The notes beneath the pieces are model-generated. The model made no database searches, was not told where the DNA came from, and saw nothing but the letters and a program-made list of their open reading frames with translations. From Cyanophora paradoxa CCMP329 (lineage: Eukaryota > Plantae > Glaucophyta), in NCBI GenBank assembly GCA_004431415.1, contig QPMI01000085.1:131166-195165 (forward strand): DNA of 64,000 nt. The letters are read 5' to 3'. Positions 32,144 to 57,434 of the stretch are shown in pieces. Positions within the stretch are counted from its first letter, which is position 1, and each line of letters opens with the position of its first letter. A program made the position numbers and the translations under genes.

Positions 32144-33544
32144 GCTGGCGGCCCCCTCCTTTTGATTTTCCTCGCTCGATTCGCAGTCTAGTGTAGTTCA
32201 GCTTTCGGGATTCCTTGTAGGGGTAGAAGGCAGCGCTGCGTTGGTTTGTCATCACTTCAAGCTTGTTGAGTATCTCTTGAATTTCCATTCGATTCGTGAC
32301 CCCCCGAGCCCTGGCATGCAATTGCAATTGATCGATGATCATTTAAATTATAAGATTTGAATGCCGCTGACAGTGCTGCGGTGGCCATGGCCAGCCTGGC
32401 AGTTAACGTCACGGCGTTTGCCTGCTGCCCTGCGCCGCAGGTTCAAGGTTAATTTACTAGTAAGTTAGGTTCCCCGCGGCACAGTTGTTAATTGCAGGTT
32501 CAAGGGTTCACCGAGCCTCATGATCAGACTCTGAGATCTAGACCCTGACTCGAGCTCACACAGTGTCATGAGGGCCTCCATCATGGCATGGCCAAGCCTG
32601 GGCCATGGCTCGGTCCGAGCCTCGGAGTTCAAATGCGCATGCCATGATGCGCATGCCATGATCATGATCCACACTCCGGATCCGGCAGACTCTGAGACTC
32701 CGTCATGCCATGATGATATCGATATCGCGATCGATCATTCCCAGAGTCCGACGGTCCCGGAGTCCTTCAAGGCTTGCCTGCCTGGCAGCTCAGCGGCTCG
32801 GCAAGTTTGGTAGTCGGATCGCCGCGGCGCGACCGGCAGATCGATATGTATCAATTCAGATCAAGACTAGTACTGTCGGACTTCGGGGTCTACGCGTACG
32901 GGGGCTAGCGCTCGAGCTCGAGCCGCCGGGCCGCACATGTACACTGCGATCCCGCTGGTGCATTACAGACTCTGAGATCTAGACTCACAGGGAGGTCGCC
33001 AGGGTGCAGCCTCGCAGGCGAATAAGCTACTAGAGGACTCCGGGACCGGAGCCGCTGAGCTAGCTTGAAAGAAGGGGGGCATGCGCAGGGCGGGATTTAA
33101 TCTGTTCTTTAAAATTCACCAGTTTTTTGTGACGAGCCATAATATATGCATATCATATAGTATGCTATCGCTTGTCCATAACCTTCATGTTCGACGGTCA
33201 TGATCAACTGGCAAGCACTAACTGTGCGAACCGTGAACTGCAGCTGCGCCATTGATACGTGCATATTTCAATTTTTAAAAACATTTTGCTCGAATATCAA
33301 TAAAAAAATCCAGCCAGGTATACATATATAAGTGGGCTCTTGCCAAGGGTCGAGCTCTCGAGCTTGCCCCTTCGCTGTCAATGCATTGTTAACCCTCGGA
33401 GGTTGATGAGTCACGCGTTGCGGAGGTTGCATTGTTATATTGCATTCGGGGAGGCAGGGGGACTAACACGTCCAATGTACCCCCCGGGGGCCTCCCGGCC
33501 TCTAACTAGGCTCGGACTCTAACTGAATGCTGTACCCCCTGCGG

Positions 33545-34282
33545 TTACTGCCCGAGCCTAGCGAACTTGCGTAACTCGGCCTCGCCCTGTACCCAGTGAC
33601 TGGTGTCGTCCATCCATTCGCGTACCTCCCTCTGACGCTTGAGTGACTCACGCTGCTCAGGTGAGGGGGAGGGGGGCCGTAGAGGAGGGGCCGCGGCGGG
33701 GTACCATGCCAAAGTTTGCCCACTCGGGGGTATACCGAATTCGCCTTGAACGATCCTCTGCGGTGTGAAGTATTGGCCGTCGCTCAGCGCCAGGTGGTAG
33801 AAGGCGTTTCGCAGTCGTCTGAGGAAGCGGGGCTGCGCTGTCTGCGGGTCAAGGCTCTCAAAGCGCCACGGTGCAACAAAATCGATGATTCGCTGCTGTA
33901 TCTGCGCGGGCAGAGCGAGGATCTGGCTCTTGCGGTTCGCAAAGGCCGTCCAAAGGGCTTGCAGGTCGGCCCAATCGCCGTTCAGATCCCTGCGTTCGCG
34001 CCTCAGATGAGATCTCGGCCTGATTGTCATACCCATCAAGCTCGCAGCCCTGATCATGTCCTCGTCCGGCCAATCTCGCTCGTCGTTAAACTCGTCTCTG
34101 ATCCAACGCACTAAATAGAGCACGCGCTCCATGAAGTTCTCCGCCGGCGAGCCGCCCCTCGAGGACGTGCGCCTCCCCTCCAGCACTGCGTTCGCATCCT
34201 CCAAGTCCACGTTCCGCTGCAGGATCTCCCCATCGTTGTAGGTGTTGTTGTACAGCACGTCGGACTCGCGGGTTCGCGCCAT
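33545..34282 (-). CDS. Viral hypothetical protein with internal F-box-like motif (paralogue of 35092-35670)
   Basis: Intronless, 245 aa. LQALWTAFANRKSQILALPAQIQQRIIDF aligns with LKQLWMAFVSRKSMIPHLPEEIQRLIFEK. Confidence 0.7.
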   Translation of the reverse strand: MARTRESDVLYNNTYNDGEILQRNVDLEDANAVLEGRRTSSRGGSPAENFMERVLYLVRWIRDEFNDERDWPDEDMIRAASLMGMTIRPRSHLRRERRDLNGDWADLQALWTAFANRKSQILALPAQIQQRIIDFVAPWRFESLDPQTAQPRFLRRLRNAFYHLALSDGQYFTPQRIVQGEFGIPPSGQTLAWYPAAAPPLRPPSPSPEQRESLKRQREVREWMDDTSHWVQGEAELRKFARLGQ

Positions 34283-34318
34283 GCTCGCGGCTCGCTGAGA
34301 ATTTCTACCTGTACCCCC

Positions 34319-35035
34319 TCACTGGCCGAAGTGCGACGGTCCCCACTCGAGGTCGGGGTGGGGCCATGGGGGCCTTGGGCGGGGTACGATGCTCCCGCTT
34401 GCCAGCTCCATGTACTCCCCCACGGGGTTGTCTTCGTTTGCGAGGTCCTTGTAGTTACCCTTTACGAGATCCGCCGCCGCTTCGCGCCAACGAACGGCCA
34501 CGTTGTACGTGTTGTCGATGATGTTCTGCACTGTACCCTCCATGGGTATTAGGGATGGCCTATAGTCGACCTGTCTCTCACGCAGGTTCAATTCCCTTTG
34601 GTAGTAATCCACTGCGTCTGGGAGGGCCCTGAGCTCCAACGGGTGCTGGCCCGGGTCCGACGAGCTAATGAGCCCGGAGCGCTGCAGTGCGTTTACAGCC
34701 GCCCGCAGCATGATTTTGCCCACCCCCCGCATCGAATCCCTCTGCTCGGGCGTCCCGTACCCCCCATGCGGCCCGTAATCGTTGTAGTAGCTCTCTATTT
34801 CGACGGTGGCTGGGCTAGTGCCGACGCGAGGCTTGACAAAGCCGTACAGCCATGCCATAGCGTCGTTGTCCGCGGAGCGGCCGCTCTCGGGAGAGGATGG
34901 GAACACTTCGATTTTGAAGTCCCTGGTCCGCCGGTTGACTCGCGTCATTAGGTTGAGGGGGTAGCGCGCGTTGCCGAATTTATCGGGAAAGAGGCGGTGT
35001 AGCTTGAACCACGCTTCCTGATCGCCGTACGACAT
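34319..35035 (-). CDS. Viral putative GNAT-family acetyltransferase
   Basis: Acetyl-CoA-binding motif A-like MRGVGKIMLRAAV and motif B-like LELRALPDAVDYY. Confidence 0.55.
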   Translation of the reverse strand: MSYGDQEAWFKLHRLFPDKFGNARYPLNLMTRVNRRTRDFKIEVFPSSPESGRSADNDAMAWLYGFVKPRVGTSPATVEIESYYNDYGPHGGYGTPEQRDSMRGVGKIMLRAAVNALQRSGLISSSDPGQHPLELRALPDAVDYYQRELNLRERQVDYRPSLIPMEGTVQNIIDNTYNVAVRWREAAADLVKGNYKDLANEDNPVGEYMELASGSIVPRPRPPWPHPDLEWGPSHFGQ

Positions 35036-35091: not shown

Positions 35092-35670
35092 TCATTCGAG
35101 CCTCCTACGCTTCGCCTCCTTCTCTTCCGCTTCGCGTATGTACTGCTCCTGCCAGCGGGGGGGTAGCATCTCCAGGGGCATTGTGTAGTTCTCCTCGAGT
35201 GATTCCTGCCAGGGTAGCAGGGGCCGCGGCATCTGACGATTGTAACTGTCGCGGATGTGGAAGTAATCGACTACCCAGTTACGGAACACCTCCAACGGTT
35301 GGTAGGGCTCGTTTGCCGTCGTCAGAGGCCGCTCGGCCGTCCACCACTTCTCGAAGATGAGCCGCTGAATCTCTTCTGGGAGGTGCGGTATCATGCTCTT
35401 CCGGCTCACGAATGCCATCCAGAGCTGTTTCAGTACGTTTATGATACCGTACTCCCCAAAGCCCCAGCGGTAGGGTCCGGCGGGCCGCATGTCCATGCTA
35501 TCCCCGAACGCGTTCATGGCCAAATAGAGATTCGGCTTCAGCTTGTTGTACGGAGGTACGTATCCATTGCGCTTGGCCCCCGTGTTCGCTCTTATCCAGG
35601 GGATCAAATCTCTAACGTTCTCCACCATTCCCTTCACCTCGTCCCTCGTTGTTAGCTCGGGGTATGACAT
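35092..35670 (-). CDS. Viral hypothetical protein with F-box-like motif and C-terminal basic NLS-like end
   Basis: ATG at 35670 (MSYPELTT). Contains HLPEEIQRLIFEK and ends EAKRRRLE. Confidence 0.7.
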   Translation of the reverse strand: MSYPELTTRDEVKGMVENVRDLIPWIRANTGAKRNGYVPPYNKLKPNLYLAMNAFGDSMDMRPAGPYRWGFGEYGIINVLKQLWMAFVSRKSMIPHLPEEIQRLIFEKWWTAERPLTTANEPYQPLEVFRNWVVDYFHIRDSYNRQMPRPLLPWQESLEENYTMPLEMLPPRWQEQYIREAEEKEAKRRRLE

Positions 35671-35713
35671 TTGCAATTGCACACATCGAGAAATTCTAAA
35701 CGCTACTGCAACG

Positions 35714-36349
35714 ATGGACCTACAACAGGGGAGCGCGGCGTGGCACGCTGCGCGCCGCGAAAAGCTAACCGCCTCGAACTTTGCCGCCGCGTGCGGCATC
35801 AACCCGTGGAAATCCAGGGCCCGCCTCTGGGCGGAGCTGAGCGGGATCGCGGGGGAAAACAACTTTGACAACCCTGCCCTAACCTACGGGCACGACTACG
35901 AGCCCCTCGCGGTCTCTATCTACAAGGCACTGAACGATAACGTTGACATTAAACATACCGGACTACACGAACACAAAGAAATGCCGTTCCTCGCCGGTAG
36001 CCCCGACGGACTGATAGGAAATGATAGGATTTTAGAGGTGAAATGCCCTTACAAGGGCGAACTTTACGATAGCGTTCCTACCTATTACATGACTCAACTT
36101 CAAGGCCTGCTGGACATCACGGGCCGCGACTGGGCCGAACTTTTTTGCTTCACGCCTCTGCGCGTGCAAACGTGGTACGTCAGACGGGACGAGAGGTACA
36201 TTCAGCTCATGAGGAAGTGCTTACAGCTATTCTGGTCACACGTCAAGGCGGGGACGCCGCCCGAGCCCTACAGCGATCGAATGAAGTCAGAGAACCTCAG
36301 CGAGGAGCAGGCGGCGCTGCGCGAGTTTAAGTCGTACGCCCTCCTCTAG
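35714..36349 (+). CDS. YqaJ-like viral recombinase / lambda-exonuclease family nuclease
   Basis: Motifs QGSAAWHAARREKLTAS, YGHDYEP, FLAGSPDG, LEVKCP and YYMTQLQG. Confidence 0.92.
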   Translation: MDLQQGSAAWHAARREKLTASNFAAACGINPWKSRARLWAELSGIAGENNFDNPALTYGHDYEPLAVSIYKALNDNVDIKHTGLHEHKEMPFLAGSPDGLIGNDRILEVKCPYKGELYDSVPTYYMTQLQGLLDITGRDWAELFCFTPLRVQTWYVRRDERYIQLMRKCLQLFWSHVKAGTPPEPYSDRMKSENLSEEQAALREFKSYALL

Positions 36350-36804
36350 TGTCCGGACCTTTCCAATACTCTATATGATTATTGGGAGGGTCGGGACACA
36401 TCTCTTAGGTGGACTACTTTCGTCCCAGGCCCTTGTAAGACAAATACCAATATTCCAATGACCCCGGACAGCGCTTCGTCGGACTAGGTAGTGTCCGGAC
36501 CTTTCCAATACTCTATATGATTATTGGGAGGGTCCGGACACATCTCTTAGGTGGACTACTTTCGTCCCAGGCCCTTGTAAGACAAATACCAATATTCCAA
36601 TGACCCCGGACAGCGCTTCGTCGGACTAGGTAGTGTCCGGACCTTTCCGATAATCTATATGATTCTAGGGAGGGTCCGGACACATCTGTTGGGCGTACGA
36701 CTTTCGTCCCCAATATTCCAATGACCCCGGACAGCGCTTCGTCGGACTAGGTAGTGTCCGGACCTTTCCAATAATCTATATGATTCTAGGGAGGGTCCGG
36801 ACAC
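36349..36804. repeat. Tandem array (periods 142, 142, 121 bp) containing four 51-bp hairpins with AT-rich core
   Basis: gtgtccggacctttcc-aataatctatatgattct-agggagggtccggacac, with variants, starting at 36349, 36491, 36633 and 36754. Confidence 0.95.
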
Positions 36805-36912: not shown

Positions 36913-39262
36913 CTAGATACGCCTGTGAACCAACGAGTAGCAATCGCGAAAGACGGTGTACACCTCCGAAATACTCGGGGCTGCGCCTAGCGCCGCGAAT
37001 GCAGCACCCTGCTGCGCCTGCCGCTCGACTGCATCCTCAAATATGTCCTCCTTCCACGTGACGTATCTGCGCTTGCGATGTCCCAGCTGCCCGCCGTCCT
37101 CTTCGCTGAAAACGCGCCTCACTCCCATGTACTTTTCGAGCAGGTACTTGATCACTTGCCAGCACTGCTGCGAGAGCTTCTTTTGCTGTTCGGCCGTAGC
37201 ATCCAAGCGAGGGCAACGCTCATCCAAACTCTGCAGTGCCGCATAGGCCTCCCGACCGTCTGCGGAGGCGAGCGCCTCGTAGGCCTCCTTCGACCAGAGG
37301 ACGCGCCCCACCAGCTTGCCGTACCCCTTCCAACCAAACAATTTCTTGAAAAGCGACACGATCTTAGAAACCTTTAGGCGCTCCGTCGAAGGCACGATCT
37401 CTTCAAGGGCATGTCGTATTTCAGCACCAGGTGGATCGTCGCCTTCAGCGGAATCGAGTACATCGTGCTCCACATCCAAGAGACGTCATCCTCGGTCAGC
37501 TCGTCGGAACTCTTAACGAGAAATGCAGCGACAGCTGCCCGAGTGAGCGACAGCAACTTATCGGACTCGAGCTGCGCAAGAGATTTGCGGGATTTCCTCC
37601 ACTCTTGGACGAGGTCGTTGAGCGCGGCTGGGCCGAGGACACCGGCGTTCAGCACGCTCTCGATCTCTCGCTTCTGCCTCGCCCGCTCTTGTGCAGGTGC
37701 ATTCGGTCCCTGGTCCTCCGTGATTAGCACATTCATCCACGGGCAGGTAGAGAGGAGCCGAAGTCGAGCGGCGACAGCAAGGCGGCGGGTCGGCATGCCG
37801 GCTCGCCGAGTGCCGTGGTGAATTGCTTTCAGATCCAGAAAGCGCTGCGCATCTGCATCGTCGCTCCCGTCACTCTCGTGCCAGTGCCCGATTGCCTTCT
37901 GCACCTGCACTTGCGGCGTACGATTCTTGCGGACGGCGACGAGCAGGTGCTCCCCCCCTGGCGGATCGCCCTGCAGCTGCTCACGCAGAGCTCTCGCTCG
38001 AAACAGCAGCTGCACGATGTCTTCGGACTCCAGCTGTGCGGGCTCCACGTGGAAGATGCCGTAAATTTTGTCGAAGTGCGCTTCGGGAAAATCAACGCCT
38101 GCCCCGAGCGCAGATGTAGCGATCAGCACGTCGCAAGCTTTATACGCTCCCTCTTCCGATAGATCGACGGGTGAGATGCGAACGGGCCCCTCCTTGATGA
38201 AGCGACAGCTCTTCTCCTTCGCCTGACCGACGATCAAGCCAATCACGAAGGGTGAGGCAGACTCGTCAGCCCAATCGCGTGCCGATTCCTGCGCTTGCCT
38301 TGCTAGGCTCTCTGCAATCTCCATTGCCTTTGCGGGCGTCTCTGTGATGACCAAAGCGCGGTGACGACCAGGGCGGCACTGGATCATCAAATCGGATTCC
38401 ACGTGATCCGGGCTGTCCGTGACACGCATTTTCCACGAGCAGGTCCGCCTGGAGTTGTAGAGCAGTCGAAGGCTCGCCCCCCTCTCTCGCGCAGACTCTG
38501 CTAGGTACGCAAGGTCAACAGGTCGCACGAATCCATCCATAGCCACAATGCGAGATGCTTGCATCACACCCCTCCAGAGACCCACGCAGCGCTCGTTGCG
38601 AGGGAGTGATCGCACGCCGAAGTCAAGGCCAACAGGCTCGAGAGTCCCACTCGAAGTCAGATGCTTCGTGAGCGACGAAATTTCATCGAGGACCACCAAG
38701 ATAGGTGTCCGGTCCTTCCAGTCCTCAAGCACTTTGTGCAGAGAATCCAACGTGATGATAACGCACCTGCACTTCGGATGGCGGTAACCGTACTCGCCGT
38801 GTGACCCCTTCGAGTGTTTCGGTGGCTTCTGAATGTCCATGTACAACAAGGCGTTGTCCGGCAGGTTCGCGGCGTCCAGACGTCGCTTCAAATCACGGCT
38901 AAAAGCTCTACGACAGGTTACGAGAATCACGTGCCAGTCGCTTTCTAGGGCCGGCCGCAGGTATGTGTCGATGAGCGCCTGCGTTTTCCCAGTGTTGAGA
39001 CCCGAGCAGATGACATCCACTTGAGCGTGGGTCGGCTGGGCTGGCAGCTCGCCGAAAGTGGAAGTTAGAATGTCGCGAGTCAGGAAGCGCTCGTCCACGA
39101 GCTCGTAGCTCACAGAGGACGGAACCATGTCTGCGGACTCGAGTGCGAGCAGAAGCGTCGGTAGCGCAATGTCAAATGCCACGGGCTGGGTTGGGTCTGT
39201 GAAATACTGCCCGAAAGCGCGCGCAGCGGACGAGCTGCCCTCAGGCTCCACCTCGATCCCAT
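36913..39262 (-). CDS. Herpes UL9-like origin-binding SF2 helicase (frameshifts near 37480 and at the 5' end)
   Basis: Motifs SGLNTGKT (Walker A), VTCRRAF, ITLDSLHKV, VVLDEISS (Walker B), VAMDG and ATSALGAGVDF. ORF 36913-37479 appears to be its frameshifted C-terminus. Confidence 0.8.
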
Positions 39263-39310
39263 ACGCGCGTATAGTGATCCTAAACGCGAATGCTGTCCCT
39301 GGACTCGCAA

Positions 39311-40009
39311 TTAGGGGCAGTTAATGAGTATTAGTATGGAGCCATCGGGCCCGGGCTGGAGATCTTGCACTCGACGGTGGTCGTGCAAGTCGATGCTGAT
39401 GCGCAGAGCCTGACCAGCTCGCCATAGCTCATCTCGCACCAGCTTGTTCTCGTGCAAAAGATCAAGGAATCGTTTGAAAATGGCGCTCGAGCTCGAAACT
39501 GAGCTAGCTGCAGCTACAGCATCCGCCGCGGGATTCGAGTTCCAAGCCGAGGTGCAAGTGTCCGTCGCAAGATCATGAGCGCCGCCGTCCGGAATCGACC
39601 GAAGAGCCGCCGCGCCAGTGCCGCTATCGAATTGAAGCTCGAGCGCTCCAGATGAGCCGAGAACCCAGGCTGCAAAGGCACAGACCTCTTGGTTTTGAAC
39701 GACGTAAGCAACTCGCAGCTGCGGGCTATTCGACACAGGCCGAGAGAACGTGAGGCCTCCGTATTTATCCACGTACGCGCGAGCAGCCGCACAGCTCGTC
39801 TCGTCGCCGGCTCCCGAAAAGCAGCTGGGTGTAATTCCAGGCGGGTGGGCAATGCATACGACGGCGCCCAGCACCGGGCTCCAGCTCTTGGTAGCACAGA
39901 CGAGAGGGAAGCGAAGCAAGAAGGTGGCCTCTTCGTCGCTAAAGCTGATGGTCTGAACACCTGGAAGGCGCGAGAGGAGCTCGTCGCTGCACACGCTGGC
40001 CGGCGCCAT
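39311..40009 (-). CDS. Viral hypothetical protein upstream of helicase
   Basis: 232-aa intronless ORF preceded by the aaaattctga motif. No family recognised. Confidence 0.5.
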   Translation of the reverse strand: MAPASVCSDELLSRLPGVQTISFSDEEATFLLRFPLVCATKSWSPVLGAVVCIAHPPGITPSCFSGAGDETSCAAARAYVDKYGGLTFSRPVSNSPQLRVAYVVQNQEVCAFAAWVLGSSGALELQFDSGTGAAALRSIPDGGAHDLATDTCTSAWNSNPAADAVAAASSVSSSSAIFKRFLDLLHENKLVRDELWRAGQALRISIDLHDHRRVQDLQPGPDGSILILINCP

Positions 40010-40100
40010 TCCTACGATGTCCTGTGCTCAGAATTTTTTGGGGTTGCACTGCAAGGCTCGGGGGCTTCGAATGAGTTCGCTCGCCCACTTGCACCTGCAG

Positions 40101-40151
40101 CTGTCCGGACCCTCCCTAGAATCATATAGATTATCGGAAAGGTCCGGACAG
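40101..40151. repeat. Inverted single copy of the 51-bp hairpin unit
   Basis: ctgtccggaccctccctagaatcatatagattatcggaaaggtccggacag is the reverse complement of the 36633 unit, apart from the terminal base pair. Confidence 0.95.
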
Positions 40152-40246
40152 TACCGTCGTCCGTCCAATAAGAAGAAAAGCTGGGATGGCTGTTGCTGTC
40201 TGGCTGTAGTTTGGAAATTTGTAGGACGGCCGTATAGGCTAGCACT

Positions 40247-43268: not shown

Positions 43269-43362
43269 CATTTCAAAGTTCATTCTCCCCTCCCCCTTTC
43301 CGAGTTCCAAGTCCGTTGGCGTTCCCTTTTAAATTTTCTTCATTCTCGTTACACGTTCGAAG

Positions 43363-43842: not shown

Positions 43843-43879
43843 ATAGTTTTTCGAAACCTCGGTTGGAAGCTAGCCAAGG

Positions 43880-45280: not shown

Positions 45281-45291
45281 TGAGGAGGGAC

Positions 45292-45579: not shown

Positions 45580-45647
45580 GCTTGCTGGGTACCTTGGAAA
45601 ATTGTGGGAGGCGTCCGGAGTGTGCGAACGTAGCTCCAATGGGATTT

Positions 45648-46739: not shown

Positions 46740-46977
46740 ACTTCTTGCTCATAAATGAGAAAAGCGCCTCAAAGTCTGCCTTTATCTGCTCCTTGGTCCA
46801 GGATGTCATCTGATCCGGGTCACCTGAGAACGGCGCATCGAACGCCACGTGGAGCGATTTGCAGGCCTGGGCAATCATTGGCTCGGGCCATGCCAGCTCG
46901 ATCAGCTGAAGGTAGATGTTGAGGGCCTTGTCGAGCTTGGCGCCCTGGGAGACCAGCTGGGAGATGGCGGGCTCCAT
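46576..46977 (-). CDS. Viral hypothetical protein (3' end overlaps 46311-46739 in another frame)
   Basis: Kozak-like accATGG at 46977; upstream ttttctga motif. Confidence 0.55.
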   Translation of the reverse strand: MEPAISQLVSQGAKLDKALNIYLQLIELAWPEPMIAQACKSLHVAFDAPFSGDPDQMTSWTKEQIKADFEALFSFMSKKYAEIEAAKDAEAQGGEDAKAPEAPAQGPAGDQGTEVQGAGPLAEGEGQGGPATA

Positions 46978-47237
46978 GGTGGGTAGACTAGCATCAGAAA
47001 ATGGCGCCAAGTTTGAATCTATTTTTTTACTACTTGGCGAGGGCTGGGCCCGGGACTCGGGCCCAAACTCCGTGACGTAAATGACGCTGACGTAAATGAC
47101 GCCGAATTTTCAAGTTGCCCTCACATGAACCTCAGCTGAGCGCTCACCTGACCCTCACCTGAACGGCCTCTATAAGCACGCGGCACGCGGCGTTCCCCTC
47201 ACACTCTCAATCTCTCTCAACGCAACCAGCAAGCACC

Positions 47238-47711
47238 ATGGCCCTTGTTGCCCAGTTCTTCGTCGAGGAATACACCGTGCGCGTGATCGGCGAGCCCATT
47301 GACCGCGAGGTGGAAGTTCTCAAGGACGGCAAAGTAGACGACTGCAAAGACTGCCCCGGTAAGATCCTCCTCATGAAGCTCTCCGACGATGGCTTCTCCT
47401 TCACCCTGGTCTCCTGCGCCAAGACCCAAACCGGGCAGACGGCCTACATCGTGACCTTCTCCGCGGGGCGCCTGAACTGCACGCATGTTCAAGTACCCGA
47501 GTGGGCCTCGTTCTGTGCGGCGATCTCTCCCTCAGGCCGCTCCCTCGCCTACACATTCTTTGAGGGGTATCAGTGCAACATCTGGGTCTTGCGGAGGCAG
47601 ATGGGCTCCCTCCAGATGAAGGTCGATCAGCTGCACCAGCAGTGCGGCTACCCCTTTAGCCTTGACGATAGGATGATTTCCTTTGATCTTGATGGCTCTG
47701 TATCCCTCTGA
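47238..47711 (+). CDS. Viral hypothetical protein
   Basis: 157 aa, C3-rich codon bias, TATAA at about 47171, accATGG context. Confidence 0.65.
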   Translation: MALVAQFFVEEYTVRVIGEPIDREVEVLKDGKVDDCKDCPGKILLMKLSDDGFSFTLVSCAKTQTGQTAYIVTFSAGRLNCTHVQVPEWASFCAAISPSGRSLAYTFFEGYQCNIWVLRRQMGSLQMKVDQLHQQCGYPFSLDDRMISFDLDGSVSL

Positions 47712-47819
47712 AATTGAACGCGTGTTTTCTGACTTCGTCTGAAGCTCACCTGACGCGGGGCCTTAAGAGGGGGCACGGGGCCTCGGTTCCTCACACTTTA
47801 ACCGTAAGCCAACGAGAGA

Positions 47820-48101
47820 ATGTGCGCCCCCAAGTACTTCACCTGCTGCCTGACCTTCGGCATCTTCGAGTACGAGGCCATGGAAGAGAATCTGGACGAG
47901 AACGGCGAGATCTGCTTCAACTACTGCAGGCTGCTTCGCAACATCTCGCTGGAGTGCCGCAAGGGCGACTGCTTCCAGCACATCATGCTCAATCCCGCCA
48001 AGAACGAGATCACGCTGTACGCCGTCGCCTGCCCCAGCGCCAGATTTAGACTCTCGAATATTCGCGTAGCCGCGATCGAAGCCCTTCCCCCCCCCCAGTG
48101 A
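47820..48101 (+). CDS. Viral small Cys-rich protein
   Basis: 93 aa with strong codon bias. Confidence 0.6.
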   Translation: MCAPKYFTCCLTFGIFEYEAMEENLDENGEICFNYCRLLRNISLECRKGDCFQHIMLNPAKNEITLYAVACPSARFRLSNIRVAAIEALPPPQ

Positions 48102-48215: not shown

Positions 48216-48998
48216 ATGGCCACCGTCCGCAACGCCAACGAGATCGACCCCGCCAAGCTCGCCTTCGAGATCGACGCCACCGGCCGCATCAAGGCCAAGT
48301 ACGACGGCCTGCAGGGCCTCATGATGTACGCGCCGCCCATGGTCACCATCAACCCCTGCATCAACACCGAGCAAGGCAAGGCTTGGAGCGACGAGAAGAA
48401 GGCCTTCGTCATGGAAGAAAACGGCGGATTCTACACGCTGGACCTCACCGATCTCAGCGCCGTCGACGGCCAGACGAACCCCGCCGCGGACGAGTTCCTC
48501 AAGCTGCTCGAGGCCCTGGACGCGAAATTCTGCGAGTTCGTGCAGCAGAACCAGGCCAAGCTCAAGGTCTCGCCCGGCCGCGCCCTCTCCAAGGACCAGA
48601 TCTCGGTGCTGCAGACGCCCAGCGTGCGCATCAAGGTCGACAAGGAGTCGGGCCAGGCCTTCTACAAGTACCTCAACATGCGCATCCGCACCCAAACGAT
48701 GGCGGGCAAGCGCAAGACCATCCCCGTCGTCGACATGTCCAACTACCTCATCACCGAGCGCGCCACCATCGGCACCGGCGACCTGGTGGCCGCCCTCGTT
48801 AAAATCGACACCGCCTACGCCATCCCCGAGGGCAAGTTCGGCCTCAAGTGGTCCTTCCTCGCCGTGCAGCAGTGCAAGGTTGGCGCCTTTCGCTTCGCAG
48901 GCCGCACGCCCGAGCTGGCCTTCAGGCCCTACGACAACGAGGCCAGCTTCGAGCCCTACCTAAACCCCGAGTCTATGTACACCGCCCCCATGCAGTAG
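48216..48998 (+). CDS. Putative NCLDV/T7-type OB-fold single-stranded DNA-binding protein
   Basis: Layout resembles viral SSBs: YTLDL...FLKLLEALDAKF...PSVR...YLNMRI...IGTGDLV...KFGLKWSFLAVQ, with an aromatic/acidic tail. Recognised by pattern only. Confidence 0.65.
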   Translation: MATVRNANEIDPAKLAFEIDATGRIKAKYDGLQGLMMYAPPMVTINPCINTEQGKAWSDEKKAFVMEENGGFYTLDLTDLSAVDGQTNPAADEFLKLLEALDAKFCEFVQQNQAKLKVSPGRALSKDQISVLQTPSVRIKVDKESGQAFYKYLNMRIRTQTMAGKRKTIPVVDMSNYLITERATIGTGDLVAALVKIDTAYAIPEGKFGLKWSFLAVQQCKVGAFRFAGRTPELAFRPYDNEASFEPYLNPESMYTAPMQ

Positions 48999-49050: not shown

Positions 49051-49854
49051 TCAGAGGCCGTTGAACTTGCCGCCCACCGCCTTGGGCTCCGCCGCCGTCG
49101 AGGCCGCCGCCTCCGTCACCTCCTTCATCATCTCCGGGTTCGCGTTGGCCGCGTGCACCGCCAGCACCGTCTGCACCAGGGCCATCCCCAGGCGCGCCTC
49201 GGGCCCCAGGGTCACGTAGCGCGAGTACTTGATCACCAGCTCCTCCAGGATCGGCTGCACCTGGTCCATCGAAGAGAGCGTCGCCTGCCCGAGCCCGTCG
49301 AGCTTCAGGCCGATCGGATCGTACGCCTTGTTCAGGTGCTCCAGCGAGTGCATGCCCGCGATCAGAAAGAGGCGCGCCGCCTCCAGCGAACCCCGCGTGC
49401 TCAGCTCGCGCTGAATCTCCTCGTACTCTTCCTTCAGCTCGTCCAGCGGCGTCGCCAGGCTCAGCTTCTTCGTGGACGTAAGCTCGCCCCCGAACGAGCG
49501 CCGGTACTGCGCGATCTGCCGCAGAACCTGCTTCTTCTCGTCCACGTCCACCTGCGCCTCGTCCCGCGGCCGCTCCTGCAGGTCGATTCCCAGCGCCTTT
49601 TTCACGCTCTGCTCCTTCTTCTTCGTCATTTCGATGTGCTCCTGCACGCTGAAGCTCGCGCCCTTGCTCGGCGCCGTCGGCGGCACCGCGGGCCCGTCGC
49701 CCGGCAGCGCCATCCTGTCGGCCTTCGGCGCCTTCTCCCCCTTTTCCTTGCCCTCCTTCGCGGGGCGGCCCTTCTTCCGGGGCTGCGGGATTCCCACGGG
49801 GTTCGGCCCGTCCACGGCCAGCGCCTCGAAGCCAAGCATCGCCGAGGGGTCCAT
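49051..49854 (-). CDS. Conserved NCLDV-type protein (DUF5767-like)
   Basis: LDELKEEYEEI...LEHLNKAYDPIGLKLDGL...ILEELVIKY...GPEARL...H..N resembles the E.LN..YDPF..LDG...EEL..KY...PE..L pattern of a widespread giant-virus family. Confidence 0.6.
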   Translation of the reverse strand: MDPSAMLGFEALAVDGPNPVGIPQPRKKGRPAKEGKEKGEKAPKADRMALPGDGPAVPPTAPSKGASFSVQEHIEMTKKKEQSVKKALGIDLQERPRDEAQVDVDEKKQVLRQIAQYRRSFGGELTSTKKLSLATPLDELKEEYEEIQRELSTRGSLEAARLFLIAGMHSLEHLNKAYDPIGLKLDGLGQATLSSMDQVQPILEELVIKYSRYVTLGPEARLGMALVQTVLAVHAANANPEMMKEVTEAAASTAAEPKAVGGKFNGL

Positions 49855-49883: not shown

Positions 49884-50213
49884 TCACTCCGAGGTCAGCT
49901 CGACGAAGAGCTCGATGTAAAGCCAGAGCTTTTCGCGCAGCTCGGGCCCGCTGCCGTAGAATAGCGAGCGCACGGCCGAGGCGTACTCCTGCGGCAGCCT
50001 CTCGAAAACCGAGTCGTCCTTCGCCTTGATCAATTCCGCCTCCGCGTTGATGTGCCTCCTGAACAGAACGATGACCGCCGTGGCCCCGATGCCGCGCAGC
50101 GACTGGATCTGCGCCCGCACCCCGGGCTCCTTGGCCTCCGGCTCCAGCAGGTCGAGGAAGCGGCCCCAGCGCGCCTCGATCTGCTCGCCCAGCGTCGCCT
50201 CCGTCGCTGCCAT
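49884..50213 (-). CDS. Small helical NCLDV-type hypothetical protein
   Basis: 109 aa with IKAKDDSVF...KLWLYIELFVEL pattern; upstream atttctga motif. Confidence 0.65.
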   Translation of the reverse strand: MAATEATLGEQIEARWGRFLDLLEPEAKEPGVRAQIQSLRGIGATAVIVLFRRHINAEAELIKAKDDSVFERLPQEYASAVRSLFYGSGPELREKLWLYIELFVELTSE

Positions 50214-50235: not shown

Positions 50236-51359
50236 TTACTGACCGGGTCGGAGGGCCCGGGCTGCTAGGTCGTACATCTCCGCCTTCCGGGCGTTCGTTT
50301 CCGCGAGCATGGTAATCTGACTGTTCTCCGTGTTCCGGACGAGGGCCTGGAAGGCTGTCTGAATTGCAGTCTGCGATGCTTCGGACATACCGGCCACCGT
50401 CCCCTTGCACGGAGCGCTTCCATGCGCCCTTTCTCGAACGGCGTGGCAAGCTGGTTGCTCTGCAGCGCAGGGAGCGGGTTGACGACGCGGGGCAGCAGGT
50501 TCTGGTCCGCGTAAGGCGTGGCCGTGGGCAGGGCCGGGCCGCGCGTCCCCGGCTGATCGAGGAGCATCGCCCCGAACGGATTGCCCCGGCTGAAGTCCAC
50601 GTCGTTGCGGCCGTAGGGCTTGTTGACGGCGCTGCTGATGTTGGCCGTCTGCGCGTTGAACATGGGCGATAGATCGGGGGTGTAGCCCGCGCGCAGCCCC
50701 TGGGGGTTCGCCTCCGTCTGCCCGTAGCGGCCGGCCGGCCCGAGCAGGTTCTCCTTCTCGATCTCTTCCATCGTCTTGATCCAGCCGCGCTCGCGCGCCC
50801 ACTTCATGACGAGATCGTCGTAGTTCATCGGGAAGAAAACCTTCTGATACTTGTCGAAGCGCTGAATTTCGATATCCTGCTCGATCATGTTCGTAATTCG
50901 CTCCAGCAGCTCGGGGTAATATTCCTCGAGCATTTTGGCGACGCCCGGCTGCTTCAGGTCGAAGGCCGTCATCGCCCACTGGTCGAAATCGCGAATCATG
51001 ATTTCCTTCCGCAGGCTGAACGCGTTCTCCACGTCCTCCTCGTTGATCGTGCGACCGGGGTTCGCGTTCTGCAGCTGCTGTCGGATGCCCATGCGCATCA
51101 GCTTCTCCATCGAGGGCGTGTACTTCATCGCGGGCAGGGTCTTCGTTTCCCCCCCGCTGAGCCCCAGGCCCCGCGCCTTATCCTCGGGCGTGTAGATGTC
51201 CGCCTTCGTCCCATCTACGACGGGCACCTCGGGCATAATCGTGCCCGGAAGGTACTTGTTCACGATGCCGTCCATGTCGGCCTTCAGGTCGTTCTTCAGC
51301 GACTGGCGCTGCTTCTTAGAGCCCTCCCCAATGTCCATCATAGAGTGGCCCTTCGTCAT
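50236..51359 (-). CDS. Viral protein with F..W...P...E...PMN..D domain (1-bp frameshift near 50403 in this arm)
   Basis: ORF 50265-51359. The mirror arm has an extra G that restores the C-terminus ...RARGTVAGMSEASQ...RPGQ-stop. Confidence 0.7.
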
Positions 51360-51438: not shown

Positions 51439-52812
51439 CTAGTGGAAGCGGCGGTAGGCGCCGCCGTTGGTGAAGGTGATCTCGTTGTAGTAGCGGCAGT
51501 AGATGTCGGCCACGGGCTTGGCCTCCGACGTGTAGGTCTTGAGCGTGGTGAGCGTGAGCTCGATGGTCTTGAAGGCGCCCATGTCGAGGCCGCCGAACAT
51601 CTTGGTGTTGTCGGCCACGTCCGTGCCGAAGGGGAGCGAGTAGATGAACTCCGTCCCGAACTGGCCCACGTTGCGGGGCTGGATGTCGCTGCTGTGCCCG
51701 TCGTGGGTCGCGAGGGTCGTGGGGGGCGTGTCGTTGCCCGACCACGGGTGCGGGTGCAGCGCGTCGGCCACGTCGGCCGCCGCCGTCCCGTCCATCGAGG
51801 TCACGCCCCGCAGCAGCTCGAGGTGCTTGCGCGCGGGGGCGTGCGTGTGCTCCTTGTGCGCGATGGCCGTGCGCAAAAAGTGCGCGTCGTGGTTCGAGCT
51901 GTCGAGCACCTTGATGTTGTCGCACTTCAGCTCGATCTTGTCGAGCGGGCGGAAGCGCCAGAAGTGCTCGCCGTTGTCGGTGTGCGGCTTGTCGCGCACC
52001 ACGATGATCAGCTCGTAGCAGATTCCGGTGAACGGCAGGCGGATGGCCTTGCCCGACTCGAACGAGACGTGGTAGTGCTGCACGTACTTGCCGGCCCACG
52101 TGAACGAGTTCGGGTGCAGCGCCAGCTCGCGCGAGTCGATGTGCACGTAGCGCAGGATGAGCTTGGTGTCCAGGCTGACGGTGCTCGTCAGGTTGGTGTT
52201 GGTGTGCAGGCCGCCGTCCACGTACGAGGCCGTGATCTCCTTCTGCGAGGCGTAGGTGATCTGCAGCTTCATGTCGTTTCCGGAGCAGCGGAGCTTGTGG
52301 AGCGGCACGGCGAACTTTCGACCGTGGCCCGTCGCGATGCGAATCGGTATGTACAGCGTGTTCGGGGCCTTGCCCCGGCGGCGCAGCGGCTGGTGCGCCC
52401 AGAGGTTGTTCACCATGTCGACGTGCTGGACGACGGACTTGTCGTCCTCGAACTCGCCGTAGATGGCGTCGTGGTGGCCGTTGTACTCGTGGATCAGCTG
52501 TGCGCCCACGAAGATCTTCACCGTCTTGAGCAGCACGTAGCCGGCCTTCGGGATGTAGAAGTGGTCCGCGTTCGTCAGCGCCGGCAGCGTCACCTTGAGC
52601 CAGGAGTCGTTGAACATCGGCGCCGAGTGCGGGATGACGATGTCGACGGTCTGGCTGAAGCTCACGCCCGACTGCACGGGGCTCACCTCGAGCACCTCGT
52701 CCACGAACGGCATCGCCGTGTCAAAGGTCTCGTGCACGTGCACCGACGCGTCGGAGCTGCGCAGCGAGTGGTGCAGGGCGGTCGTGGGGGTGGAGATGAG
52801 CGCGGAAGCCAT
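51439..52812 (-). CDS. Major capsid protein, NCLDV-type double jelly-roll
   Basis: 457 aa. N-terminal FSQTVDIVIP...WLKVTLP...GYVLLKTVKIFVGAQLI...LYIPI...AVPL; C-terminal IYSLPF...GGLDM...YCRYYNEITFTNGG. Parallels the Capsid_N/Capsid_NCLDV motif order. Confidence 0.88.
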   Translation of the reverse strand: MASALISTPTTALHHSLRSSDASVHVHETFDTAMPFVDEVLEVSPVQSGVSFSQTVDIVIPHSAPMFNDSWLKVTLPALTNADHFYIPKAGYVLLKTVKIFVGAQLIHEYNGHHDAIYGEFEDDKSVVQHVDMVNNLWAHQPLRRRGKAPNTLYIPIRIATGHGRKFAVPLHKLRCSGNDMKLQITYASQKEITASYVDGGLHTNTNLTSTVSLDTKLILRYVHIDSRELALHPNSFTWAGKYVQHYHVSFESGKAIRLPFTGICYELIIVVRDKPHTDNGEHFWRFRPLDKIELKCDNIKVLDSSNHDAHFLRTAIAHKEHTHAPARKHLELLRGVTSMDGTAAADVADALHPHPWSGNDTPPTTLATHDGHSSDIQPRNVGQFGTEFIYSLPFGTDVADNTKMFGGLDMGAFKTIELTLTTLKTYTSEAKPVADIYCRYYNEITFTNGGAYRRFH

Positions 52813-52854: not shown

Positions 52855-54827
52855 CTACGTTATTAGAGAGCGCGCCCCCCGTCTCGCTAGGTCCGCGTCG
52901 TACGCCTTCTTGCGGAGTGCGTCCGTGATCGCAGACCAGTCGCGTGTGCCGTTAAGATAACCCAGGGCAAGTCCTTGGCCCAACATGAAGTAACGCTCTG
53001 GATCCAAGTTCATGAGTTGCTGGGCCCGCTCCTCTACGCGCCGCACACGCTCCATAAAGGGGCCCTTTGCCGCAGATCCGAGCGGGTCCGCTTCTCGCTC
53101 AGCTTCGAAGAATTTCACGACATCCCCGCCCAGGTCCGAAATATCACGGTGCTGCTCTGCTATCCGTGCCTGTGCCTTGTTGACTCCAGCTGCCTGGGCA
53201 TGGGCTATCGATGCCAGTTGGTTGTAATCGATTTCTTCTGCAAGGTATTTCGCAACGGCGGCGTCCCCTGCAGCGCGCGCGATTTCGGGCGATACGCTCA
53301 CAAGGAATCCCTCCCGGCGAGCCCGATTGGCCGCGCGCTCCGCTTCCGTCTCCTCGTCCATGGGATCGTCTGGACTGGCTGGATTGCCTGGAGCACCGGA
53401 GCGAAGTTTCTTCAGCAGCCCCGCACGGCGAGCTTCTGTCGCCTCTTTCACCTTCTTGGCGGCCAGTTCAAGCGCATCGTTTACGTCCATGGTCGCATAC
53501 CCGGGTCTCCGCCCCATATCCTTGTACGCGGCCCTGCGCTTGTCCATGGCTTCCTTCTCGTGCGGGGACGAGGGGGCGATTTCTATCCCCGCGTTTGCGA
53601 GTTGAGCCTGGACGGCGACGGGCACCTGCTCGAGCACGGCCCTTGCCGCCGCAACAGCCACCGCCTCGGCCGCCACCACCTCTGGCGGGCGCGAGGGCCC
53701 CGCCTGCGGCTCGGGTGGCGGCGGGGGCGGCGGTGGGGGTGGAGGCGGGGGCTGCTGCTCCGCTGGGGGTGCGGACGGCCTGGCCACCGTGTCCGGGGCT
53801 GCGAGGGGCCGGGCTGCGGCGCCAGCGGGGGCGTCTTCGGCCCGGGCGGCGCTGGCGGCGCTGGCGGCGCTGGTGGCCCCGGCGGCGGCGGAGCCCCCCC
53901 TTCGTCGTCGGACTCGATCATTTCGTCCCTGGGTTCCTTGGACGGTAGGGCCTTCTGAATGAGGGCCTCGCGCGCGCCCTTGCCCGCCTTGATTGCTCTG
54001 CCCATGGCCGCCTCCGGGAAACTGGCCTCGATGGCCTCGTTGTCCCCGTCCGTGATGCGCACCTTCTGCTCGCGGCGGGCCTTGATGTACTTTTCCTTGT
54101 CCATCCGCTTCTTCGCCCGTCGCCTCTCCCTGGGCACGTCGCGCTGGCGGCTCTCGTCCGGCCCCGGCCCCTCGCTGTCCGAGCTCGAGGGCGGCTCGGC
54201 CTGGGCGAAGGGCTGGCGCGTGTTGCGGTTCGCGTAGTCGGGGTCGTACCTCCCGCCGATCAGCTCCTCGGGCTTCTTGTTCTCGCGCGCGTAGATGCTC
54301 GTGGGCTTGAACTCCTCGCCGTTGATGATGTACTTGTAGTAGTAGTACGCGTCCTCGAGGTTCATCGGCCCCAGCGTCTCGAGGCGCTTCTTGCGCTTCA
54401 GGAATTCGGTGATCTGATCCTCCTTCGACTTGCAGAACTCCCGCACGCCCGGCAGCACCGTCAGGTTCTTGCCGTCCACGTCGCAGGCGCCCGCCCCCTT
54501 GGCCTTCAGGTTCGCGGTGAAGGCCGACTGGCCCATCAGCCAGGCGCGGAAGCCCTCCTCGTACTCCTCGTCGAGGCTCGACTCCATCTGCTGGAACTTG
54601 TTGATGTAGTACGCGTTGGCGATGGCCTGCGCCTCCACCTCGGCGAGCTTGTCCGATTGATCGCGCTCCTCGAACCGAATTTCCGGCGTGGCCCTCGCCA
54701 GCGCCGTCTTCATCAGCTGCTGAAAGTGTGCGTACTTGTCGCTCTCGAAGGGCGTGATGTGCGAGTCCCCGCCCCCCGGGATCGCGAGCACGTTGCGCGG
54801 CGCGAAACGCGAGGCGAGCCCCCTCAT
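52855..54827 (-). CDS. Large viral protein (~655 aa) with N-terminal PMN..D domain and Pro-rich linker; split here by a 1-bp deletion near 53795
   Basis: ORFs 53583-54833 and 52855-53787 join in frame if the 5-C run seen in the mirror arm (58456-58460) is used. The ATG overlaps the upstream stop (ATGA). Confidence 0.7.
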
Positions 54828-55102
54828 TTGCACTTCTTAGGAGCCGGCTTTGAAATTTTATCGGTCTTGGCCTTGTCTTCCTTCCCGTCCTTCTTCTCGG
54901 CCCCCTTCTTCCCCTGCTTCGTCGGGCGCATCGCCACGAATATTTCGCCGGGCGAGACGTCCTCGTACAGCGGCTTCGGTCCCTTAGGAAATTCGGGCGG
55001 CCCCTTCAGCTTCTCCTTCGCCTCCTTCACCTCGGCCTTGGTGGGCCGCTCCTGCCCGTTCGTGGGCGCCTTTTTCGCGGGCTTCTTCTGCGCCTCCGGC
55101 AT
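54824..55102 (-). CDS. Viral small Lys-rich basic protein
   Basis: 92 aa, highly Lys-rich; upstream tttttctg motif. Confidence 0.7.
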   Translation of the reverse strand: MPEAQKKPAKKAPTNGQERPTKAEVKEAKEKLKGPPEFPKGPKPLYEDVSPGEIFVAMRPTKQGKKGAEKKDGKEDKAKTDKISKPAPKKCK

Positions 55103-55104
55103 GT

Positions 55105-55441
55105 TTACCCATCACCAGAAAAATATGGGTTGGCGCCCCGTACGTCTCGGGGAACTGCCTCTCCCACCTGCGCATGGCCGCGTCCCTCTGGTCGTCGAAG
55201 CTACGGTAGGCCGCGGCCCTCTGCCCATCACGATTTGCCAGAGCCGTGCACGGACCTCGTCCTGCAGTCTGTACACCCAATCGCGAATGTTCTCGACGAT
55301 ATCCGTCGGCAGCGTGGCCAACCCCGCCTTGATCTCGGGTACATCCGTGGGATCCTCTTCGAGCGTAAGCTTCTGCATGCGAGCGCGCAGCATCTCAATT
55401 TGCGTATCGATTGGGGCCCAATAAGGGATAGATCGAGACAT
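55105..55441 (-). CDS. Viral hypothetical protein (frameshifted in this arm)
   Basis: Starts MSRSIPYWAPIDTQIEMLR. The mirror copy 56819-57157 reads through the first frameshift. Confidence 0.6.
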
Positions 55442-55506
55442 CGGGGTACGGGGTCACTGAGAAATAACACTGGGTCGGAAGAGGAGGTACCCCACCAGGA
55501 TCCCCG

Positions 55507-55716
55507 CTATAATCCAGAGGGGCGACCAGTCGCGCTCCGCCGGCGCGCCCCGGGCGTCACCATCAGCTGCCCCGCCCCGGGCCTGCGCAGGCCGTGCGTG
55601 CGGTGGTCCGCCCAGTGCGGGCGCGGGAACTGCTCCTGCGGCATGCGCTCGGGGTAGATGCCGTCGAATCGGTTCTGCATTTGGTACATGTCCCTATCGA
55701 ACAGCAGGGAGGCCAT
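55507..55716 (-). CDS. Viral small hypothetical protein
   Basis: 69 aa, identical in both arms; upstream atttctaagtcc motif. Confidence 0.6.
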   Translation of the reverse strand: MASLLFDRDMYQMQNRFDGIYPERMPQEQFPRPHWADHRTHGLRRPGAGQLMVTPGARRRSATGRPSGL

Positions 55717-57434
55717 TTCTCAATTTGGGGAGGGACTTAGAAATACTGCCCGTGAGCTCCCTGTCGCGGATCCTGCGAAAATCCGCGAAGAGCCCGCGCG
55801 CGCAGCGCCTGCAGACGAGGCGGGCCCGCCCGCCACGCGCGCCACCGAGATCTCGTGGCCGAACTGCAGGTGGCCCGGGAAGCAGGTGGGGGGTAGTCGC
55901 AGACGAAGCAGTGGCAGGGGCAGTTGCGCCGCCGGATCACATCTGAATTGCAATCGCGGGCTCGCTCGCCGCCTTCCTCGGCGCGCGCTGGCGCTTGGGC
56001 TGGGCCTCGAGCGGGCTCGGGTCGCCCTCCGCGGGGCCGCCTTGGCCTTCTGCCGGGGCGCCGCGGGGGCTTCGGGGCCGTAGGGGCTGCCGGTGCCTGG
56101 CTCGAGCCGGCGGCCGGCCAGCGGCGTCGGTCACCTGCGGCGCTGCGGCGGCGGGCTCGAGCCAGGCACCGGCAGCCCCTACGGCCCCGAAGCCCCCGCG
56201 GCGCCCCGGCAGAAGGCCAAGGCGGCCCCCGCGGAGGGCGACCCGAGCCCGCTCGAGGCCCAGCCCAAGCGCCAGCGCGCGCCGAGGAAGGCGGCGAGCG
56301 AGCCCGCGATTGCAATTCAGATGTGATCCGGCGGCGCAACTGCCCCTGCCACTGCTTCGTCTGCGACTACCCCCCACCTGCTTCCCGGCCACCTGCAGTT
56401 CGGCCACGAGATCTCGGTGGCGCGCGTGGGCGGGCGGGCCCGCCTCGTCTGCAGGCGCTGCGCGCGCGGGCTCTTCGCGGATTTTCGCAGGATCCGCGAC
56501 AGGGAGCTCACGGGCAGTATTTCTAAGTCCTCCCAAATTGAGAAATGGCCTCCCTGCTGTTCGATAGGGACATGTACCAAATGCAGAACCGATTCGACGG
56601 CATCTACCCCGAGCGCATGCCGCAGGAGCAGTTCCCGCGCCCGCACTGGGCGGACCACCGCACGCACGGCCTGCGCAGGCCCGGGGCGGGGCAGCTGATG
56701 GTGACGCCCGGGGCGCGCCGGCGGAGCGCGACTGGTCGCCCCTCTGGATTATAGCGGGGATCCTGGTGGGGTACCTCCTCTTCCGACCCAGTGTTATTTC
56801 TCAGTGACCCCGTACCCGATGTCTCGATCTATCCCTTATTGGGCCCCAATCGATACGCAAATTGAGATGCTGCGCGCTCGCATGCAGAAGCTTACGCTCG
56901 AAGAGGATCCCACGGATGTACCCGAGATCAAGGCGGGGTTGGCCACGCTGCCGACGGATATCGTCGAGAACATTCGCGATTGGGTGTACAGACTGCAGGA
57001 CGAGGTCCGTGCACGGCTCTGGCAAATCGTGATGGGGCAGAGGGCCGCGGCCTACCGTAGCTTCGACGACCAGAGGGACGCGGCCATGCGCAGGTGGGAG
57101 AGGCAGTTCCCCGAGACGTACGGGGGCGCCAACCCATATTTTTCTGGTGATGGGTAAACATGCCGGAGGCGCAGAAGAAGCCCGCGAAAAAGGCGCCCAC
57201 GAACGGGCAGGAGCGGCCCACCAAGGCCGAGGTGAAGGAGGCGAAGGAGAAGCTGAAGGGGCCGCCCGAATTTCCTAAGGGACCGAAGCCGCTGTACGAG
57301 GACGTCTCGCCCGGCGAAATATTCGTGGCGATGCGCCCGACGAAGCAGGGGAAGAAGGGGGCCGAGAAGAAGGACGGGAAGGAAGACAAGGCCAAGACCG
57401 ATAAAATTTCAAAGCCGGCTCCTAAGAAGTGCAA

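Follow-up and report, generated by a model that had tools for sequence, protein, structure and literature searches.

What kind of element lies beside the host genes of a glaucophyte chromosome, made up of uninterrupted reading frames and carrying a viral capsid gene? The question is raised by a 64,000-nucleotide stretch of the Cyanophora paradoxa CCMP329 genome (contig QPMI01000085.1, positions 131,166 to 195,165; hereafter the window, in whose numbering all coordinates are given). A sequence-only reading had proposed an endogenous miniature relative of nucleocytoplasmic large DNA viruses (NCLDVs), similar to the mriyaviruses and Yaravirus. The window covers the left portion of a single copy of an element present many times in the genome. 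We consider it probable that this element is a provirus integrated by a small DNA virus, divergent but related to the mriyaviruses, that would rely on the host nucleus for both DNA and RNA synthesis. The proposal gained support from an NCLDV-type capsid and from five clear and one weak mriyavirus-family genes, while the class-defining ATPase, VLTF3, RuvC and HUH genes were not found in the visible part of the element.

33332..56140, no strand: the endogenous virus as far as visible; left boundary approximate, remainder on the right beyond the window

The host side (window positions 1-28,600) contained fragments of starch synthase, histidine biosynthesis, kinase and ketoacyl synthase domains spread over several frames, and 8 of the 51 host-side frames scanned had a Pfam match at E ≤ 0.001. 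This splitting of domains across frames suggests that the host genes carry introns. The GC content was 0.71 in the first 32 kb and 0.62 in the element, where 28 uninterrupted frames covered 75% of the sequence, corresponding to 26 genes if three helicase frames are counted as one. The domain fragments, GC shift and coverage by open reading frames (ORFs) confirmed the reported passage from host genes to compact viral ORFs. The packing of the ORFs was looser than described, as stretches near 40.0-42.3 kb and near 45.7-46.3 kb are non-coding. Five of the 27 element ORFs scanned had a Pfam family above the cut-off (YqaJ, Herpes_ori_bp, HNH_3, DUF5767 and Capsid_N). Consistent with the earlier claim, scans of the element ORFs with Pfam, PHROG and further families gave no match to any polymerase or integrase across the 22.8 kb that are visible.

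The capsid gene is of the NCLDV type.

51439..52812, minus strand: major capsid protein (MCP), double jelly roll, NCLDV type, 457 aa (Pfam Capsid_N, profile and model)

A profile of 13 Cyanophora capsid sequences, searched against 1.84 billion representatives, returned 54 matches; after seven strong ones, the best E-value was 7e-12 at ~19% identity. Among the 47 weak matches, 37 were scanned, of which all 37 had Capsid_N and 35 also Capsid_NCLDV. An MCP model built with the weak NCLDV-type matches (pLDDT 75.5) aligned with the PBCV-1 capsid over 352 residues (Z 37.6, rmsd 2.2 Å). Its Z scores were 35.1 for EhV-201 and 35.0 for faustovirus, compared to 21.9 for Sputnik, 21.3 for mavirus and 11.9 for adenovirus. 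Foldseek agreed with an NCLDV-type capsid, with no Polinton-like virus (PLV) capsid among the matches listed. As modelled, the protein is a double jelly roll of the NCLDV type, nearer to NCLDV than to virophage or adenovirus capsids, and the 457-aa NCLDV-type capsid named in the sequence-only reading was upheld by Pfam, Foldseek and the structural Z scores. The same genome contains PLVs, which are likewise multi-copy endogenous double-jelly-roll viruses, with 366 PLV-type MCP matches in Table S4 of PMC10120064, and the six example PLV MCPs given in its Table S2 look unlike the Cyanophora MCP, as judged by eye only. The nearness of the capsid to NCLDV rather than virophage structures, and the lack of an integrase or pPolB match in the visible part, do not fit a PLV or virophage. 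Close capsid relatives outside Cyanophora were not found: the window MCP had one pattern match in IMG/VR, which was not confirmed, a four-sequence alignment confirmed 0 of 227 in the JGI metagenomes, and a scan with the weak capsid relative P0021 confirmed 0 of 1. The MCP sequence had no match in the PDB at E ≤ 1.

To which NCLDV-like group, then, does the element belong? Its visible part contains several proteins with counterparts in the mriyaviruses.

35714..36349, plus strand: YqaJ/PDDEXK nuclease (Pfam E 7e-28; gamadvirus PDDEXK profile E 2e-43)
48216..48998, plus strand: putative single-strand DNA-binding protein (SSB), PEV_26 homolog (profile E 2e-22; ESM Atlas 0.97)
49051..49854, minus strand: DUF5767 protein, Mriya_48 homolog, putative envelope protein (Pfam E 3e-13; profile E 4e-29)
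49884..50213, minus strand: probable PEV_20 homolog (weak profile E 0.003 in 318 frames; alignment and gene order)
50265..51359, minus strand: Mriya_51 homolog (profile E 6e-7; hhalign 87%)
52855..53547, minus strand: orphan helical ORF, 230 aa, in the gamadvirus Mriya_23a position, no similarity detected
53583..54827, minus strand: Mriya_1 domain protein (profile E 9e-10; hhalign 95%; partly circular)

Reference loci were obtained with a motif from the ORF at 53583-54827, whose strict form had no match and whose looser form had one, the IMG/VR locus L001, a yaravirid-like record that encodes a PDDEXK protein and one resembling HUH endonucleases. With a motif taken from L001, 14 IMG/VR loci were obtained, L001 among them, giving a reference set of 13 gamadvirus-type loci and one yaravirid. 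The genes of locus L004 were named by the table numbering of PMC11253617, anchored by Pfam RuvC, MCP, YqaJ, A32 and VLTF3, and the family names rest on that match. In total, 318 frames of the element and 453 of the host were searched with profiles of 43 ORF families from these loci, many of the families being antisense shadows. Compared to the element values listed above, the best host-side E-values were 3.6 for PDDEXK, 0.006 for Mriya_48 (in a proline-rich frame), 4.1 for SSB, 1.2 for Mriya_1, 1.5 for Mriya_51 and 1.4 for PEV_20. Since a Mriya_1 motif had served to choose the loci, the match to that family is in part circular; the other families were not selected for. The nuclease, SSB and DUF5767-like calls of the sequence-only reading all held, the nuclease and DUF5767 by their Pfam matches and the SSB by the ESM Atlas match to Nucleocytoviricota clusters and the gamadvirus SSB profile.

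Gene order is partly conserved. The element shares with gamadviruses the arrangement of Mriya_1, one further gene and the MCP, and also the series Mriya_51, PEV_20 and Mriya_48, with Mriya_50 missing between the first two. In a comparison confined to gamadvirus and phage sequences, the nuclease scored 129 bits against the former and 73 bits against the latter (best 10 of 343 records). The 230-aa protein next to the capsid gene had no ESM Atlas match above 0.78, and the Mriya_23a profile had no match in the element. A protein search with the Mriya_1 region gave five matches, all of them EukProt models. In L001, the Mriya_1 protein (9518-18538) has 3,006 aa, compared to ~350 aa in the gamadvirus loci.

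As far as compared (13 gamadvirus-type loci and one yaravirid), the gene content appears nearer to the 'Gamadviridae' than to Yaravirus. The 'Gamadviridae', a group of the class Mriyaviricetes that comprises the Pleurochrysis sp. endemic viruses and their relatives (Yutin et al. 2024, PMC11253617), share with the element an NCLDV-type MCP, Mriya_1, Mriya_48, Mriya_51, PDDEXK, the PEV_26 SSB and probably PEV_20, the two conserved neighbourhoods and the absence of visible polymerases; SSB and PEV_20 are listed as gamadvirus-only. Unlike them, the Cyanophora element has an SF2 UL9-like helicase rather than an SF3 one (SF3_hel2), an MCP of 457 aa rather than ~550 aa (~20% identical), a freshwater glaucophyte host, dozens of chromosomal copies, and a visible part without ATPase, VLTF3, RuvC, minor capsid or HUH genes. 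SF3 and SF2 helicases were described as mutually exclusive in mriyaviruses in the accessible text of 10.1101/2024.02.29.582850. With the Yaraviridae that have an SF2 helicase (e.g., the representative of 40,161 bp listed in Table S1 of PMC11253617), the element shares the UL9-like SF2 type, Mriya_1 and a PDDEXK-type nuclease, the helicases being likened by type. This mixture of gamadvirus structural genes and a UL9-like helicase falls between two described families, and the lineage likely lies between the 'Gamadviridae' and the Yaraviridae. Its membership of the class is likely rather than established because the element runs beyond the window, where ATPase, VLTF3, RuvC and HUH genes could lie. 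Mriyaviricetes are also characterised by the absence of DNA and RNA polymerases and by genomes of 35-45 kb; the visible 22.8 kb of the element have neither polymerase.

Mriya_48 alone is not diagnostic, as it also occurs in giant viruses and in Zora-type groups. According to the portion of 10.64898/2026.06.19.733378 at hand, the Zora, VC134 and VC218 groups have 20-30 kb, are Mriya48-positive, carry NCLDV-like capsids and often have an integrase. A small NCLDV-like virus of this kind, outside Mriyaviricetes proper, would suit a Cyanophora MCP without a supported sister group. However, these groups are named in that portion as sharing only Mriya48 and HUH, and the presence here of Mriya_1, Mriya_51, the PEV_26 SSB and probably PEV_20 sets the element apart by description, making such an origin very unlikely.

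How might a virus with no visible polymerase replicate? The nuclease gene is followed by a helicase gene with palindromes on both sides.

36347..36804, no strand: tandem array (142/121 bp) of four 52-bp palindromes with an AT core (two copies folded, z -8.2 and -6.3)
36913..40009, minus strand: UL9-like SF2 helicase, ~1,000 aa, three frames in the assembly (Herpes_ori_bp E 3e-13)
40100..40155, no strand: fifth palindrome copy, inverted, upstream of the helicase (fold z -6.35)

The Herpes_ori_bp match bore out the reported UL9-like SF2 helicase, which is split over three frames in the assembly. A 1,007-aa paralog maps across all three frames, and the frame breaks are probably assembly errors because the short-read contigs over both contain a single gap apiece and exceed the length of the covered stretch by one base. 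Against the PDB, all four helicase matches at E ≤ 1 were origin-binding proteins, although weak (E 0.12). Its 12 relatives were all EukProt models (48-99% identical), and no relative was found among 73 candidates in IMG/VR. On two other contigs the helicase model lies near a capsid model (10 models away on tig00021428, 14-16 on tig00021332), and therefore the helicase belongs to the element, though its alleles vary. For most of the remaining helicase models, the contig has no listed capsid model.

Herpesvirus oriS and its UL9 protein offer an analogy for palindromes beside a UL9-like helicase, and by this analogy the five 52-bp palindromes are candidate replication origins. After excision or copying out of the element, the helicase would bind and open the AT-core palindromes beside its gene, SSB would coat the strands and a host polymerase would copy them, while the YqaJ nuclease and SSB may support recombination-dependent replication. 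Upstream of the helicase, the gap at 40258-40533 contains several short TGTTACAC-type direct and inverted repeats. Integration genes were reported absent from mriyaviruses in the available part of 10.64898/2026.06.19.733378. As no integrase was seen here, insertion would most likely be by the recombination activity of YqaJ and SSB or by an HUH endonuclease in the unseen part, with about even odds that one of the two is right.

Is the window an isolated insertion? All 15 capsid protein matches among 4,600 candidates were EukProt gene models named Cyanophora paradoxa, in agreement with the glaucophyte host suggested earlier. Where most of the protein was covered, these relatives were 53-98% identical, ranging from 93-98% down to 53-61%, and they therefore form several subfamilies. 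Capsid models, including partial and fused ones and that of the window's contig, lie on 31 distinct named contigs, a count that duplicate contigs in the assembly could inflate. In several copies the capsid ORF is full-length (456-485 aa), and these copies represent three or more subfamilies. Relative to the single-copy flank, the listed core contigs had depths of 24-76 in short-read run X2 and 26-65 in run X7, and the window copy's helicase allele had 5-7 times the flank depth; contig depth is no copy number, and the agreement is only rough. The several capsid subfamilies, together with helicase and accessory modules that have been exchanged, suggest that integration occurred repeatedly and was not a single accident. 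The other copies are known as protein gene models only. In two of them, P0067 (tig00020572) and P0068 (tig00020725), the gene beside the capsid gene differs from the 230-aa ORF found here, and therefore the family is mosaic.

The number of copies also bears on whether the window shows a fragment of a giant endogenous virus of hundreds of kilobases with its polymerases elsewhere. The capsid, SSB and DUF5767 proteins have giant-virus homologs, and methylated giant-virus-like regions (GEVEs) in C. paradoxa are described in the accessible part of PMC12344493. Nevertheless, we regard a giant-virus fragment as highly improbable, since the matches and order of Mriya_1, Mriya_51 and PEV_20 point to the small group, and 31 capsid-bearing contigs in a 99.9-Mb assembly (PacBio and Canu, PMC6704402) fit many small elements better.

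Is the element joined to the chromosome? One contig from each of two runs (X2, 31,534-33,361; X7, 31,869-33,361) led from the end of the last host gene to the element edge at single-copy depth with no differing letters. Both stop at 33,361, where the depth jumps, and k-mer logic places the left edge near 33,332. The junction at 32-34 kb was thus reached by short-read contigs of two runs, but no single record spans the host flank and the first viral ORF. Integration in the chromosome is likely, as supported by these contigs. No terminal hairpin was found at the left edge (fold z -1.8). A co-cultured, non-integrated virus misassembled onto host DNA might be suspected, given that the same contig has an unsupported fold-back and the assembly is imperfect. 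Yet the host gene is connected to the edge in two short-read runs that date from different years, the depth ratios are alike in both (24/26, 76/65 and 5.7/6.6; less so in GC-rich parts, 60/36), and all 20 runs with the sequence come from one organism, which leaves this explanation extremely improbable.

The fold-back lies at the right end of the window, where 48,221-64,000 forms one palindrome.

56141..64000, no strand: mirror copy of 48,221-56,097; likely assembly fold-back, outside the element

The two arms differ by five substitutions and 57 indels, of which 56 are in homopolymers and 49 are absences in the right arm. A contig in each of three runs crosses the palindrome centre and departs from the window sequence at 56,140. 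The X2 and X7 bin depths are those expected from the centre-crossing contig alone, with 56,141-56,154 uncovered. The mirror arm is likely a fold-back artefact, although GC-rich palindromes can drop from short reads and a real single-copy inversion is possible. In most copies the element continues for at least 254 bases past 56,140, where multi-copy contigs run into other sequence. A real hairpin end at 56,120 was considered distinctly unlikely and set aside: no loop like a PacBio adapter was seen by eye, the indels look like homopolymer slips and the contigs run on. P0003 (tig00000342_g24267), one of the public gene models, resembles the mirror arm in its reading, and therefore the annotation includes an artefactual duplicate.

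Several observations weigh against an integrated mriyavirus-related provirus. In the visible part, no match was obtained with the profiles for the ATPase, VLTF3, RuvC, the minor capsid protein and Mriya_50, whose best E-values were 0.13-2.7 (VLTF3 0.13, RuvC 0.72, Mriya_50 0.23, PEV_22 minor capsid 1.3); the PEV_34 profile reached 0.3. All five were also missing from 71 gene models, and in gamadviruses they sit between the shared genes. A Walker A pattern was not found past 30 kb in the window, and VLTF2 had no Pfam match in the visible part. Three HUH motif matches in the window were all antisense to ORFs, with none in a real ORF, and the single HUH protein of L001 had no match in the window. 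No AEP-type motif was found before the helicase, unlike in the Yaraviridae SF2 helicases. The good capsid model relied on an alignment of NCLDV-type MCPs, while a model from the 13 Cyanophora sequences alone was unusable (pLDDT 37); the fold was favoured by the alignment used, but the Pfam Capsid_N match is independent of it. The MCP matched the gamadvirus MCP profile weakly (E 0.002). Free capsid trees, which were quick trees with unnamed outgroups and no yaravirid MCP, the second without the long-branch rows P0052 and P0061, put the Cyanophora MCP on a long branch. The suggested check of MCP fold and phylogeny thus yielded a double jelly roll by model but no supported sister in the free trees. 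A tree joining the Cyanophora and gamadvirus MCPs had a log-likelihood 3.1 higher and was not rejected (p-AU 0.58). The junction contigs enter repeated sequence by only ~30 bases, one short of the bridging rule. No virion, episome or excision has been observed.

The missing genes could mean that this is a defective mobile element of mriyavirus-like descent, which lost its packaging and late-transcription genes and spreads or was amplified in the genome without particles of its own. ATPase, VLTF3, RuvC and minor capsid genes are missing where gamadviruses have them, many helicase-family models lie on contigs without a listed MCP model, and C. paradoxa methylates repeats and virus-derived genes (PMC12344493, in its accessible part). 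Gene loss is not established, however, as the element runs beyond the window, and full-length capsid ORFs would hardly be kept in at least three subfamilies without packaging. We therefore consider a defective element unlikely and retain the provirus reading.

As a tentative extension of the provirus reading, the element may represent a mriyavirus lineage with the rank of a new family, temperate and active to this day in C. paradoxa, integrating repeatedly without an integrase, using herpes-like palindromic origins and a UL9-type helicase instead of HUH rolling-circle replication, and inducible to particles. If true, it would be the first glaucophyte virus obtainable in culture. It has been proposed that, among living viruses, mriyaviruses stand nearest to the ancestor of the giant viruses, and almost all of them are metagenomic contigs. 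With a family present on 31 contigs in an alga that is easy to grow and whose methylome is published, their temperateness, their integration route and the universality of HUH rolling-circle replication become testable. Such a likely mriyavirus, likely integrated, would provide a culturable system for virus entry into and exit from a host genome.

Has the element been reported before? One sentence in a preprint (bioRxiv 10.1101/2025.04.19.649669, version dated May 2026, in the part available) mentions Mriyaviricetes-related regions in a Glaucocystophyceae assembly. These regions match ours in viral class, host class and being embedded in host DNA, and by description they are probably the Cyanophora family. 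The new host-virus system of the sequence-only reading was therefore anticipated in its host link, while no description of the gene content was found. The same part of the preprint reads Nucleocytoviricota insertions as mainly accidental, which differs from a family on 31 contigs. Endogenous Yaravirus-like NCLDVs of 47-54 kb in Phaeocystis (PMC12480563, accessible part) are likewise small, polymerase-poor and integrated in an algal genome, but their hosts are haptophytes and one element is named per genome for two genomes. No description of the gene content, copy number or replication module of the Cyanophora family was found in the literature covered, which largely excluded subscription journals, and the available part of PMC5294986 does not mention the element. 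What appears to be undescribed so far is the assignment of individual genes, the number of copies and the module of helicase and palindromes.

The remaining features of the element are smaller or orphan genes and repeats.

33545..34282, minus strand: orphan ORF, 245 aa, no family match; shares a 28-aa block with 35092-35799 (pairwise E 8e-6)
34319..35035, minus strand: orphan ORF, 238 aa, no family match
35092..35799, minus strand: orphan ORF, 235 aa; frame overlaps the nuclease, start probably internal
42352..43008, minus strand: HNH endonuclease (Pfam HNH_3 E 1e-8; PHROG E 6e-28)
43077..45654, no strand: seven small ORFs, several with hydrophobic or basic stretches, no significant family match
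45648..47102, no strand: four TGACG-paired repeats, 39-90 bp (8 matches of a 14-mer, 0 in 100 shuffles)
46311..48101, no strand: four orphan ORFs (142, 133, 157 and 93 aa), ORF calls, no family
54824..55441, minus strand: two small ORFs (92 aa, basic; 109 aa), ORF calls

The paired TGACG repeats resemble the as-1/CRE elements bound by plant bZIP proteins and are candidate host-factor enhancers. They sit among genes covered by contigs from runs guessed to be RNA. In two such runs (X15 and X17, RNA status guessed), high-depth contigs with some differing letters covered the nuclease gene and the genes at 43-48 kb. These contigs may derive from other copies, and expression is a lead only, as depth cannot rank genes. 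The same runs gave no cover on 33-35.6 kb and 37-42.9 kb, which was not used as evidence.

Three orphan ORFs in the regions 33545-35799 and 55112-55441 share an LPxxI motif, whose likeness to an F-box core was noted by eye without family support. GNAT-like motifs in the ORF at 34319-35035 were likewise recognised by eye, and family scans gave them no support. A 36-bp repeat at 34283-34318 and 35038-35073 occupies the same position before two neighbouring orphan genes and resembles a shared promoter or cassette boundary.

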